Below, piece after piece: positions 7,087 to 50,095 of a stretch of DNA of 64,000 nucleotides; the stretch's first letter is position 1; every line of letters starts with the position of its first letter. A model generated the notes under the pieces. It saw nothing but the letters and a program-made list of their open reading frames with translations. It had not been told where the DNA came from and did no database searches. A program made the translations under genes and the position numbers. Origin of the DNA: Escherichia coli (GTDB lineage Bacteria > Pseudomonadota > Gammaproteobacteria > Enterobacterales > Enterobacteriaceae); NCBI RefSeq assembly GCF_051903065.1, contig NZ_CP178438.1. One strand, 5' to 3'.

Positions 7087-7093
7087 AACTGCA

Positions 7094-7188
7094 TAAAAAA
7101 ATAGAGTCTGTCGACATCCGCCAGACTCTACAGTACACACAGCAGTGCATCCGCGTCTTAAATCCGGCATTGTCTCCTCTGCGCCGGT
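7094..7188 (-). ncRNA. mcaS: McaS (IsrA) small RNA with intrinsic terminator
   Basis: abgR-smrA intergenic; minus-strand hairpin TAGAGTCTG / CAGACTCTA (7102-7130) followed by a U7 tract; TATAAC -10 box just upstream of the predicted 5' end; about 95 nt, matching the known position. Confidence 0.7.
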
Positions 7189-10565: not shown

Positions 10566-10687
10566 GCAGGTGAATGCAACGTCAAGCGATGGGCGTTGCG
10601 CTCCATATTGTCTTACTTCCTTTTTTGAATTACTGCATAGCACAATTGATTCGTACGACGCCGACTTTGATGAGTCGGCTTTTTTTT
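10566..10687 (+). ncRNA. fnrS: FnrS small RNA (FNR-activated) with intrinsic terminator
   Basis: zntB-dbpA intergenic; canonical terminator GCCGACT-ttgatga-GTCGGC then T8 (10660-10687); C/U-rich single-stranded stretch CTTACTTCCTTTTTT; about 122 nt. Confidence 0.7.
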
Positions 10688-12449: not shown

Positions 12450-13385
12450 TTATTTCACTTCAACCACATTCAGCCGTAACTCATCCAACTGATTTTCATC
12501 TTCTTCTGGCTGCCAGCCCGCCGGTTGTAGTGGGATCTCTTCGCGATCAAACGCCAGATCACCCCCGTTAACCACTTCAGAACCGTGGGTGATGCCTTTG
12601 AAATCGAACAGGTTGGTATCGCACAGATGCGACGGCACCACATTCTGCATCGCGCTGAACATCGTCTCGATACGCCCTGGATAACGTTTATCCCAGTCAC
12701 GCAACATGTCAGCAATCACCTGACGTTGCAGGTTAGGCTGTGAACCGCACAGGTTGCACGGAATAATCGGGAACGCTTTTGCATCGGCAAATCGCTGAAT
12801 ATCTTTCTCGCGGCAGTAGGCCAGCGGACGAATAACGATATGTTTGCCATCATCGCTCATCAGTTTCGGAGGCATACCTTTCATCTTGCCGCCGTAGAAC
12901 ATATTTAAGAACAACGTTTGCAGGATATCGTCACGATGGTGGCCCAACGCGATCTTCGTCGCCCCCAGTTCCGTTGCGGTGCGATAAAGGATACCGCGAC
13001 GTAGCCGAGAACACAGTGAGCAAGTGGTTTTGCCCTCTGGAATCTTCTCTTTCACGATACCGTAAGTGTTCTCTTCAACAATCTTGTACTCAACGCCCAG
13101 CTTTTCAAGATACTCGGGCAGAACGTGTTCCGGGAAGCCCGGTTGCTTTTGATCGAGGTTAACAGCCACCAGCGAAAAATTGATTGGCGCGCTTTGCTGC
13201 AAATTGCGCAGAATCTCCAGCATGGTATAGCTGTCTTTACCCCCGGAGAGGCAAACCATGATGCGATCGCCTTCTTCAATCATATTGAAGTCAGCAATGG
13301 CTTCGCCCACGTTACGACGCAGGCGTTTTTGTAATTTGTTCAGATTGTATTGTTCTTTCTTGCTAATTTCTTGATTTTGCGACAT
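12450..13385 (-). CDS. ttcA: tRNA 2-thiocytidine(32) synthetase
   Basis: 311-aa ORF with PP-loop SGGKDS and CxxC pairs (CSLCSR, CNLCGS). Confidence 0.93.
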
Positions 13386-13524
13386 TTAAAAGCGACTCAA
13401 TTCGTTATATGGCATCAGAAGAGTATGCGTCATGCCGGAACGCCCAGCATAAGAAATCTGATATAAAAACTGTGGCGTGTATGGTACGGATTAGAGGGGA
13501 AAATGTCAGCACATTTGCGAAATG

Positions 13525-13553
13525 AATCAAAAAGCCCGCAGCAATGTGCGGGC
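13525..13553 (-). terminator. intrinsic terminator downstream of uspF
   Basis: Minus-strand hairpin GCCCGCA-cattgc-TGCGGGC followed by a T-rich run (TTTTTGATTCATTT). Confidence 0.55.
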
Positions 13554-13560
13554 GTTAGTG

Positions 13561-14076
<516 letters not shown>

Positions 14077-14135
14077 TTAGATCAAAGGAGGAAGAATAAG
14101 CAGAAAAAGCCCGCCATAACAGCGGGCAGGAGGAT

Positions 14136-15269
14136 TTAGAACTGATAAACCAGACCTAAAGCGACAATATCATCGGTAGAGATGCCGTTGGCAGCGTAGA
14201 AACTGTCATCTTCATCCAACAGGTTGATTTTATAGTCAACATAAGTGGACATGTTTTTATTGAAATAGTAAGTCGCGCCAACATCGGCGTATTTAACCAG
14301 ATCTTTATCATCAACACCTGCCGGGTTGTCTGCACCACCGGCAGCGTGCAGGTCACGGCCTTTAGACATCAGGAAAGAGACTGCCGGACGCAGACCAAAA
14401 TCAAACTGGTACTGTGCAGTGACTTCAAAGTTCTGGGTTTTGTTTGCAACAGCATAATCGCTGTCGCCAAACGGGGTCATATTACGCGTTTCTGAATACA
14501 TGGTTGCCAGGTAAATATTGTTAGCATCGTATTTTAGCCCAGCAGTCCACGCGTCTGCTTTATCACCACCCGCCGCAGTATGGTTAACCTGGTCATTGGT
14601 GCGGTCAGAAGAGGTGTATGCCGCACCAGCGCTAAAGCCCATGCCTAAATCATATGTTGTGGAAAGACCCCAGCCGTCACCGTTTTCATGGCGAACATCA
14701 CGTCCGTTGTTGGTGCCTTCCTGACCATTACTGGCTCCTTCGTTGTTACCTTGATACTGCACCGCGAAGTTCAGACCATTTACCAGACCGAAGAAATCAG
14801 TATTACGATAAGTCGCGACGCCATTGGCTCGACCAGTCATAAAGTTGTCTGCATTGGTATAAGAGTCACCGCCAAATTCAGGCTGCATATCGGTCCAGCC
14901 TTCGATGTCGTACATTACGCCATAATTACGTCCGTAATCGAAAGAACCGTAATCTGCAAATTTCAGTCCGGCAAATGCCAGACGGGTCCATGACTGGTTT
15001 TTTGAAGATTCAGTGTTGTTTGCCTGAATATTGTATTCCCATTGACCGTAGCCAGTAAGTTGATCGTTAATTTGGGTTTCGCCTTTAAAACCCAGACGCG
15101 CATAGCTCTGGTCGCCATCTTTCGCTGAATTATCAGAAAAATAATGCAGGCCATCAACTTTGCCATACAGATCTAATTTGTTGCCGTCTTTATTATAAAC
15201 TTCGGCTGCATGTGCAGCACCTGCGGCGAGCAGGGCAGGAATTAAAAGTGCCAGTACTTTGCTTTTCAT
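14136..15269 (-). CDS. ompN: outer membrane porin N (OmpC/F family)
   Basis: 377-aa ORF with signal peptide [37 protein letters not shown] and C-terminal ...GLVYQF. Confidence 0.93.
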
Positions 15270-15496
15270 TGAATAAATCCTTTAGTTATTTTATTTGCCT
15301 TTTATCCCCATTTCGGGGAGTGAAAACATCCTAAAGGAGAAGTTCAGTTAGCCGATAAATATCATTTGTTACGCCTTAAGTAAAACCTTAATCAAATAAT
15401 TCCTCTGAAATGATAATAAGTCTGGTGAATGTATCGAAGATAATACATACAAAATAAAAATTATACTTTTAATTTTCTATACGTTATTCTGCGCGG

Positions 15497-15606
15497 GTTA
15501 TATGCCTTTATTGTCACAGATTTTATTTTTTGTTGGGCCATTGCATTGCCACTGATTTTCCAACATATAAAAAGACAAGCCCGAACAGTCGTCCGGGCTT
15601 TTTTTT
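15497..15606 (+). ncRNA. micC: MicC small RNA (ompC regulator) with intrinsic terminator
   Basis: ompN-pfo intergenic; begins GTTATATGCCTTTATTGTCACAGATTTTATTTT and ends with hairpin GCCCG-aacagtcgtc-CGGGC plus T8 (15579-15606); about 110 nt, divergent from ompN. Confidence 0.85.
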
Positions 15607-15634
15607 AGAATTGGATAATCCTTATCCAGAGCAT

Positions 15635-47337: not shown

Positions 47338-48339
47338 TCAGAGTTTAGCGAATTTTTCGAGGGTGCGAATAAGCTGCGTGACGAAGCCATATTCGTTATC
47401 GTACCAGGCGACCGTTTTCACCAGTTGTAAATCGCCCACGGCGGTAATTTCCGTTTGCGTGGCATCAAACACCGAACCGAAATGGCTGCCAATGATATCG
47501 GAAGAGACTATTTCTTCATCGGTATAACCAAATGACTCGTTATTGGTGGTTGCTTGTTTAAGTGCGTTATTCACCTCTTCGGTAGTCACTTTTTTTCCGA
47601 GAATGGACACCAGCTCAGTGACCGAACCTGTTTTCACCGGTACGCGTTGCGCATGACCTTTCAGTTTGCTGCTCAGTTCCGGTATCACCAGACCAATGGC
47701 TTTTGCCGCCCCCGTAGTGTGGGGAATGATATTTTCTGCCGCGGCGCGTGAAGCACGTAAATCTTTACCACGCGGGCCATCCACCAGTGACTGGGTGCCA
47801 GTATATGCATGAATGGTCGTCATCGTGCCGACTTCTATCCCGAAACTGTCATGCAAGGCTTTGGCCATCGGCGCAAGACAGTTAGTAGTGCATGATGCCA
47901 CGGAAACAATGGTGTCGTTGCTATCCAGAGTGTCGTCATTGACGTTATAAACGATAGTTTTCATTTCACCGGCAGGGGCGGAAATCAACACCTTCTTCGC
48001 GCCAGCATCAAGATGCGCCTGCGATTTCTCGGCGGAGGTATAAAAGCCAGTACATTCGACAATGATTTCTGCACCTTTCGCTTTCCACGGAATATTTTTA
48101 GCCTCTTTTTCGGCGTAAACCGCGATACTTTTCCCATTAACGATAAGTGAATCTTCCGTAAAATCAACGCTCCAGGGGAACGGTCCGTAGTTTGAATCAT
48201 GTTTCAGCAGGTAGGCGAGAATTTTTGGAGAAGTGAGATCATTAATAGCGACAACGTCTATGTTGCTTTTGACTTCAAGTAATCGACGCAACACCAGTCG
48301 ACCGATACGACCAAAACCGTTAATACCAACTTTACTCAT
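47338..48339 (-). CDS. gapC: glyceraldehyde-3-phosphate dehydrogenase paralogue, intact ORF
   Basis: 333-aa uninterrupted ORF with catalytic [10 protein letters not shown] and N-terminal NGFGRIGR Rossmann motif. Confidence 0.9.
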
Positions 48340-48527: not shown

Positions 48528-49058
48528 ATGGAAAATAAATACTCAAGGTTACAAATCGGCATTCACTGGCTGGTCTTTTTGCTGGTTATCGCAGCGTGTT
48601 GCGCAATGGAGTTTCGTGGTTTCTTCCCACGTAGCGATCGACCGCTCATCAACATGATTCATGTTTCCTGTGGCATCTTAATTCTCGTGCTGATGGTGGT
48701 TCGTCTTTTGTTAAGACTGAAATACCCAACCCCGCCGATTATACCTAAGCCGAAACCGATGATGACGGGACTGGCGCATTTGGGACATTTGGTGATTTAT
48801 CTCCTGTTTATTGCGCTGCCAGTGATTGGTTTGGTGATAATGTATAACCGGGGCAACCCGTGGTTTGCGTTTGGTTTGACGATGCCTTACGCTTCAGAGG
48901 CCAATTTCGAACGGGTAGATAGCTTAAAGTCGTGGCATGAAACGCTGGCGAATCTGGGATATTTTGTCATCGGGTTGCACGCTGCGGCTGCACTGGCACA
49001 CCACTATTTCTGGAAGGACAACACACTTCTACGCATGATGCCGCGTAAACGTTCCTGA
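48528..49058 (+). CDS. cybB: cytochrome b561
   Basis: ORF 48492-49058 trimmed to MENKYSRLQIGIHWLVFLLVI (176 aa) with AGGAAA Shine-Dalgarno. Confidence 0.92.
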   Translation: MENKYSRLQIGIHWLVFLLVIAACCAMEFRGFFPRSDRPLINMIHVSCGILILVLMVVRLLLRLKYPTPPIIPKPKPMMTGLAHLGHLVIYLLFIALPVIGLVIMYNRGNPWFAFGLTMPYASEANFERVDSLKSWHETLANLGYFVIGLHAAAALAHHYFWKDNTLLRMMPRKRS

Positions 49059-49068
49059 AGGATATTTA

Positions 49069-49132
49069 AAGAAAACGCCTGTACTAAAACCGACCCGTGG
49101 TACAGGCGAAGAATACGGGTCTACATCGGAAG
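49069..49132 (-). ncRNA. rydC: RydC small RNA (pseudoknotted, Hfq-dependent)
   Basis: cybB-ydcA intergenic; minus strand CUUCCGAUGUAGACCCGUAUUCUUCGCCUGUACCACGGGUCGGUUUUAGUACAGGCGUUUUCUU, 64 nt ending in a U-rich tail; 8-bp inverted repeat GCCTGTAC / GTACAGGC. Confidence 0.55.
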
Positions 49133-49302
49133 CGCCTATTATATTTATTTGTATGATAAATAAAACCATAATCCTTGCCCATACGTCCATCTGGCTTATT
49201 TTTAATCAATTCACCCGATCTTTGATCTCATCAACGGTATCAAAATAAACCAGCGTATAACGTTCAAATCGCACATAAGATTCGATAAACCATGGAGGTT
49301 AT

Positions 49303-49547: not shown

Positions 49548-49734
<187 letters not shown>

Positions 49735-49755
<21 letters not shown>

Positions 49756-49810
49756 TCGTTGGCCTCGGTTGATAGAAATATCGGTCGGGGCCTTCGTCTT
49801 TCTGATTCCC
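49735..49810 (+). ncRNA. sokB: sokB antisense RNA (approximate position)
   Basis: Inferred only from hok/sok architecture (antisense to the mokB start region); boundaries not resolved. Confidence 0.3.
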
Positions 49811-50095
49811 GGTTAGCCTGAAAACAGAAAGTCTCAGGCACCCGTGAGCATCCTATGTGGTTTCCTTAGGGACGAAAATAATCACCTGACGAAATTGCGT
49901 GCTGTTTTCCAGAATTTTTCGTCATTCGGGTTAGCCAGTTTAACCATTCGTTACTCTCTTCATTCCAATGGCATTAATCTTCTCTGCAATAATTGTTGTA
50001 AAAATGTGACGCAAAGAGGCTTTTAGTCGTAAGTAATTACCGTCAAATGCCGATGACTTTCTATCAGGAGTAAACCTGGACGAGAGACAACGGTA

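Follow-up and report, generated by a model that had tools for sequence, protein, structure and literature searches.

The RydC small RNA gene of an Escherichia coli genome and a candidate YieP operator in its promoter

The minus strand of positions 49069-49132 in the 64,000-nucleotide stretch of Escherichia coli DNA analysed here (the window) carries the known small RNA RydC, identical to the reference K-12 allele, and we add nothing new on RydC itself. The complete explanation, to which we assign a probability of about 97%, is that of a rydC gene whose transcript folds into a pseudoknot, regulates cfa in an Hfq-dependent manner and is repressed by YieP, probably via a 15-bp palindrome. The identity of the element, its structure with the accompanying covariation, the complementarity of the seed to its target and the anatomy of the promoter and motif are direct results of our analysis. 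The RNA occupies the following positions:

49068-49132, minus strand: RydC small RNA, from a full-length match to RF00505, identity with K-12 and the mapping of b4597
49132, minus strand: 5' end (+1) of RydC, the start of both the RF00505 match and the K-12 annotation
49069 (Rfam and the first-pass annotation; 64 nt) or 49068 (K-12 annotation; 65 nt), minus strand: 3' end of RydC

The first-pass annotation had proposed RydC from position and length alone, placing it on the minus strand between cybB and ydcA, and had left the decision for or against to a covariance-model search. Comparison of the whole window with Rfam 15 gave a match of 92.5 bits (E = 5.2e-17) to the RydC model (RF00505, gathering score 48); the match is on the minus strand and has exactly the proposed ends, 49132..49069, and the alignment comprises model positions 1-64 of 64 and is not truncated. 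The sequence of this strand is CUUCCGAUGUAGACCCGUAUUCUUCGCCUGUACCACGGGUCGGUUUUAGUACAGGCGUUUUCUU. Over 181 nt, comprising the RNA with 90 nt of sequence before it and 29 nt after it, the window shows no difference from E. coli K-12 MG1655 (100% identity), and 5415 of 5426 complete E. coli genomes contain this stretch. The curated K-12 record (NC_000913.3) places the ncRNA rydC (b4597) on the minus strand at 1491442-1491506, corresponding to 49068-49132 in the window, with cybB and ydcA on either side; neighbours, pseudoknot, seed and terminator are all the same, with no difference in the RNA. The proposed length of 64 nt thus agrees with Rfam, although the K-12 annotation contains one more 3' U (window position 49068) and is 65 nt long. 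An RNA of about 64 nt, bound and stabilised by Hfq, is known from published work on Salmonella and on K-12, where the sequence is identical. We found no evidence against the identity as RydC, and the original call, including strand and interval, proved sound.

The open reading frame coordinates agree with this location. The 3' end of rydC lies 9 nt beyond the stop codon of cybB (49056-49058), with both genes convergent, and ydcA starts (49303) 170 nt from the element, on the other side from cybB. The same cybB/ydcA synteny has been published for E. coli and Shigella (PMC11340327). A rydC feature is, however, absent from the PGAP-annotated RefSeq genomes that contain the identical sequence (H1-H40), including one that is 100% identical over 1.6 kb, and it is annotated only in the curated K-12 record. 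This looks like an annotation gap and not like evidence of absence.

To compare the RNA with its relatives, we gathered eight distinct RydC sequences from one scan of a genome collection and one scan of metagenomes, and confirmed with Rfam the homologues from the genome scan. The scan of genome contigs, with the pattern CTTCCGATGT-N41-45-CAGGCGTTTT, retrieved five loci, two of which were chance matches without an Rfam match. Its recall was incomplete, because it returned only contigs from draft genomes and missed representatives of E. coli and S. enterica that should match; therefore, no conclusion on phylogenetic distribution is drawn from it. Because the seed and part of one stem were also specified by the search patterns, less variation could come to light among the homologues. 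The parts of the RNA are these (nt, positions in the RNA):

49122-49132, minus strand: single-stranded 5' seed, nt 1-11 (CUUCCGAUGUA), invariant in the homologues and pairing with cfa
49115-49121, minus strand: 5' arm of stem S1, nt 12-18 (GACCCGU), from the Rfam consensus, the stem energy and pairing in the eight homologues
49092-49098, minus strand: 3' arm of S1, nt 35-41 (ACGGGUC), from the Rfam consensus, the stem energy and the pair counts
49100-49108, minus strand: 5' arm of the terminator hairpin S2, nt 25-33 (CGCCUGUAC, which includes GCCUGUAC), from the MFE fold, energy and covariation
49076-49084, minus strand: 3' arm of S2, nt 49-57 (GUACAGGCG), from the MFE fold, energy and covariation
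49068-49075, minus strand: U-rich 3' tail, UUUUCUUU, read from the sequence; together with S2 it forms a Rho-independent terminator

The RF00505 consensus pairs nt 11-18 with nt 35-42. Here, S1 joins G12-U18 with A35-C41 (7 bp, -10.5 kcal/mol) and S2 joins C25-C33 with G49-G57 (9 bp, -13.8 kcal/mol), and their arms interleave to produce an H-type pseudoknot. The 8-bp inverted repeat noted at first, GCCUGUAC (nt 26-33) and GUACAGGC (nt 49-56), is real and perfect, grows to 9 bp with the pair C25-G57, and is followed by the U-rich tail described with it, UUUUCUU(U). The internal stem then reported thus stands as S2, but it is only half of the fold, because the second stem (nt 12-18 with nt 35-41) had been overlooked. 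The nested minimum free energy fold of the 64-mer likewise contains only S2, and its z of -0.48 against shuffled sequences is uninformative because ViennaRNA cannot model a pseudoknot; we replaced it by an explicit evaluation of the stems and by counting pairs in pseudoknot notation. With the pseudoknot written explicitly, all 128 pair cells of the eight distinct homologues (128/128) hold standard pairs, while sliding the partners by 1-3 columns leaves only 27-49% of them paired. Four pairs of S2 show compensatory double changes (G-C to A-U, U-A to C-G, A-U to G-C and C-G to U-A), and S1 is invariant but for one change of A-U to G-U; the covariation score was reached by none of 500 shuffles. 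Covariation therefore supports S2 only, and S1 rests on its conservation together with the published crystal structure and mutagenesis (PMC4337610). That work describes the RydC pseudoknot and its contacts with Hfq in the crystal, among them the U-tail, bound by the proximal face of Hfq, and UU steps in the loops. Both loops contain UU steps here (U23U24 and U44-U47), and the matching alignment columns are conserved.

The RydC that was crystallised with Hfq is that of Salmonella, represented in our sample by S. enterica subsp. arizonae (83.1 bits to RF00505). It shares with the RNA in the window the seed (nt 1-11), S1, the general architecture, the -10 box and the position of the putative operator discussed below. 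It differs in three compensated pairs of S2 (U-A to C-G, A-U to G-C and C-G to U-A), in two 1-nt insertions in the loops and in its operator, which matches the YieP motif at 15 of 15 positions, versus 14 of 15 in the window. The upstream neighbour of rydC in Salmonella is also a different gene from that in the window.

Nucleotides 1-12 are invariant in the eight homologues; both search patterns prescribed nt 1-10, so that this conservation is consistent with the Rfam consensus without adding independent support to it. The gene cfa lies outside the window, and we compared RydC nt 1-20 with the K-12 cfa leader (-212 to +30) using RNAduplex. In the predicted duplex, RydC nt 3-13 pair with cfa positions -109 to -99 (UCUACGUCGGA) through 11 bp, including one G-U; with three further pairs, the full duplex has a predicted energy of -19.5 kcal/mol, and only 1.3% of shuffled seeds did as well on cfa. 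The pairing site in K-12 ends in GGA, followed by UUAU, and it covers the cut by RNase E published for the cfa leader, between G-100 and A-99 (PMC6755755).

The dependence on Hfq, the activation of cfa and the repression by YieP are known from the literature, and the predicted pairing of the seed with cfa fits the published mechanism of Hfq-dependent activation. In our reading, the minus strand is transcribed from 49132, from a sigma-70 promoter, and transcription ends at the S2 hairpin and its U-tail (49068/49069). The pseudoknot leaves nt 1-11 single-stranded as a seed. In the published mechanism, with Hfq on the U-tail and on the UU steps of the loops, this seed pairs around -109 to -99 with the leader (212 nt) of the cfa mRNA in its long, sigma-70-derived isoform. 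Hfq-bound RydC then masks the RNase E site and counters Rho termination, leading to more CFA synthase. Stabilisation of the cfa mRNA by RydC and the acid sensitivity of a rydC mutant have both been reported (PMC6755755), and the other published targets, yejABEF, csgD, pheA and trpE, are repressed. Like RydC, ArrS is a small RNA that activates cfa; it is described as pairing with the long cfa 5' UTR at a place overlapping the RydC site and as shielding the transcript from RNase E (PMC6755755); unlike RydC, and by its description, it belongs to an unrelated family, with a different locus and regulator, and has no pseudoknot.

Upstream of the RNA, two elements of the promoter can be located:

49138-49143, minus strand: -10 box TATAAT, at -11 to -6 of rydC, read from the sequence
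49147-49161, palindromic: candidate YieP operator of 15 bp, ATTTGTATGATAAAT on the plus strand, at -29 to -15 of rydC

The rydC promoter has no recognisable -35 box, in agreement with its published description (PMC11340327), in which the -10 is perfect and a -35 is not obvious. The -10 box is conserved across rydC loci, being TATACT in one metagenome group. Neither the promoter nor the terminator of rydC was recognised by a scanner for consensus promoters and terminators, because it demands four of six matches per hexamer and a loop of 8 nt at most, and rydC lacks a -35 box and has an S2 loop of 15 nt. The only promoter-like sequence that the scanner reported, TGGGCA and TATCAT separated by 17 nt (49181..49153), was set aside, because it would put the first transcribed nucleotide about 14 nt ahead of the annotated 5' end; the TATAAT named in the literature is preferred.

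The GntR-family regulator YieP, of the FadR type, represses rydC about 20-fold, although the work describing this names no operator and notes that an earlier ChIP-exo regulon, obtained in glucose medium, did not include rydC (PMC11340327). In PMC7642389, rydC and ydcA appear among the candidate targets of YieP, from ChIP-exo plus RNA-seq, and the motif derived from ChIP-exo is given as the palindrome atTTGTaTGAcaAAT. The site at 49147-49161 matches this motif at 14 of 15 positions, with a single mismatch, a change of G to A in one half-site. Within the 64 kb, no other site comes this close to the motif (at most one mismatch), and 0.03 such matches would be expected. At the same position (-29 to -15), 15 of the 16 other rydC loci contain a site that matches at 15 of 15 positions. 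E. albertii, S. arizonae, an Escherichia sp. and several metagenome contigs keep the candidate site, and beyond it their upstream sequences are unrelated.

Three metagenome loci (L011, L019 and L020), those with TATACT as the -10 box, keep both half-sites and have the central triplet inverted (ATG for CAT on the rydC strand), as expected for the site of a symmetric dimer. This group also contains a second YieP-like site upstream, at -69 to -55 of rydC (ATTTGTTATATGACT in L011). A functional YieP site at sdaC is ATATGTCATACAATT (PMC8282354), and the second site in L011 is one mismatch away from the validated sdaC site 1 (ATTTGTTATATGAAT). In a further locus, L017, the upstream region is rearranged and the YieP-like palindrome is lost (six mismatches), such that L017 may carry a naturally derepressed rydC. 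The RydC sequence of this locus is the same as in L011; upstream of about -25, however, a hairpin resembling a terminator (CCCGCCTCGGCGGGTTTTT) takes the place of the promoter-proximal sequence.

Variation in the operator exists also within E. coli. Comparison of window positions 49020-49200 with the alleles of strains STEC299 (L023), APEC O18 (L024) and AVS0790 (L025) showed that these three contain the perfect site, with G, versus the A variant of the window and K-12. The same three alleles also carry the substitution A13G in RydC, which turns the pair A13-U40 into G-U. From the position, conservation and rarity of the palindrome, we infer that 49147-49161 (about 1491521-1491535 in K-12) is probably a direct operator for YieP, and the strength of repression may differ between the K-12-type half-site and the perfect sites of these other E. 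coli lineages; E. albertii, Salmonella and a third enterobacterial group have perfect sites too. A YieP dimer on the palindrome, at -29 to -15 and overlapping the promoter spacer, would occlude RNA polymerase.

Such repression raises the question of whether rydC of this strain could be intact yet in effect unexpressed, a relic that is conserved but always held off by YieP. Indeed, RydC is barely detectable in K-12 unless yieP is deleted, and neither a ligand of YieP nor a condition that induces rydC has been described. Nevertheless, conservation of the seed, both stems and the promoter is strict between Escherichia, Salmonella and a third enterobacterial group and is accompanied by compensatory changes, a sign of purifying selection acting on a functional RNA. 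Likewise, the acid sensitivity of the rydC mutant argues for a role in the cell, and FnrS, by lowering YieP, offers a route to the induction of RydC. We thus consider permanent silence very unlikely, and a functional, YieP-repressed RydC the preferred reading.

It is more improbable still that the hairpin is only the terminator of cybB, or a bidirectional terminator, without a separate small RNA. The S2 inverted repeat begins 17 nt past the cybB stop codon and, as a perfect palindrome, folds on either strand; moreover, 31 positions of the window contain a 9-bp inverted repeat with a loop of 20 nt or less, versus 5.25 in shuffled sequences, and many of these are probably terminators. Because such repeats are this frequent, the inverted repeat alone is not diagnostic, and the significance of the element derives instead from the covariance-model match and the covariation. 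A U-run follows the S2 hairpin on the minus strand only, as the plus strand continues GAAGAAUACGG, and the 40 nt upstream of the hairpin fully match the RydC model, including the invariant seed and the second conserved stem; a plain cybB terminator was rejected on these grounds. Additionally, a perfect TATAAT is located at the right distance from the RydC 5' end, the start at 49132 has been published for the identical K-12 sequence, and RydC has been detected on published northern blots. Negligible, finally, is the chance that the region encodes a small protein, because the two frames in the program-made list of open reading frames, of 53 aa (49029..49190, minus strand) and 41 aa (49084..49209), start inside the promoter, ahead of the mapped start of transcription (49132), homologous RNAs contain two separate insertions of 1 nt that would shift these frames, and the substitutions among homologues are compensatory pair changes without a codon pattern.

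Besides RydC, three other small RNAs scored above the Rfam gathering threshold in the window:

7093-7188, minus strand: McaS
10566-10683, plus strand: FnrS
15494-15614, plus strand: MicC

FnrS represses the translation of yieP and, in this way, indirectly activates rydC (PMC11340327). This upstream regulator of RydC is thus encoded 38 kb from rydC within the same window, which also contains the fnr gene at about 211-963, according to the annotation of a near-identical genome. A match to the sok antitoxin model (RF01794) at 49692-49843, on the minus strand, is on the hokB/mokB strand and ends at the hokB AUG, and sokB of K-12 is annotated on the plus strand, at about 49745-49801 of the window by coordinate mapping; the hit apparently reflects an alignment with the leader of the hok mRNA and not with the antisense Sok RNA.

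Other differences from K-12 concern the gene content of the window. The gap/gapC open reading frame (47338-48339, minus strand) is intact, with 333 aa, and annotated as a type I GAPDH in an identical genome; gapC is a pseudogene (b4493) in K-12 MG1655. At around 12450-15300, ttcA is directly followed by uspF and ompN; we take the Rac prophage to sit between ttcA and the uspF/ompN region in K-12, and it seems to be absent here. Similarly, at 24255-31627, a ydbL homologue is directly followed by an autotransporter pseudogene split by IS1 (28754-29451); this is presumably the place of the fea/paa cluster in K-12, which seems to be absent from the window.

In all, a gene that automatic PGAP annotation leaves out of identical genomes could be recognised here as rydC, and the only increment of this work is a precise candidate for the YieP operator in its promoter, together with a half-site polymorphism within E. 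coli. If this operator is true, the derepression of rydC upon deletion of yieP would become a direct mechanism, and the strength of RydC repression may differ among E. coli lineages.
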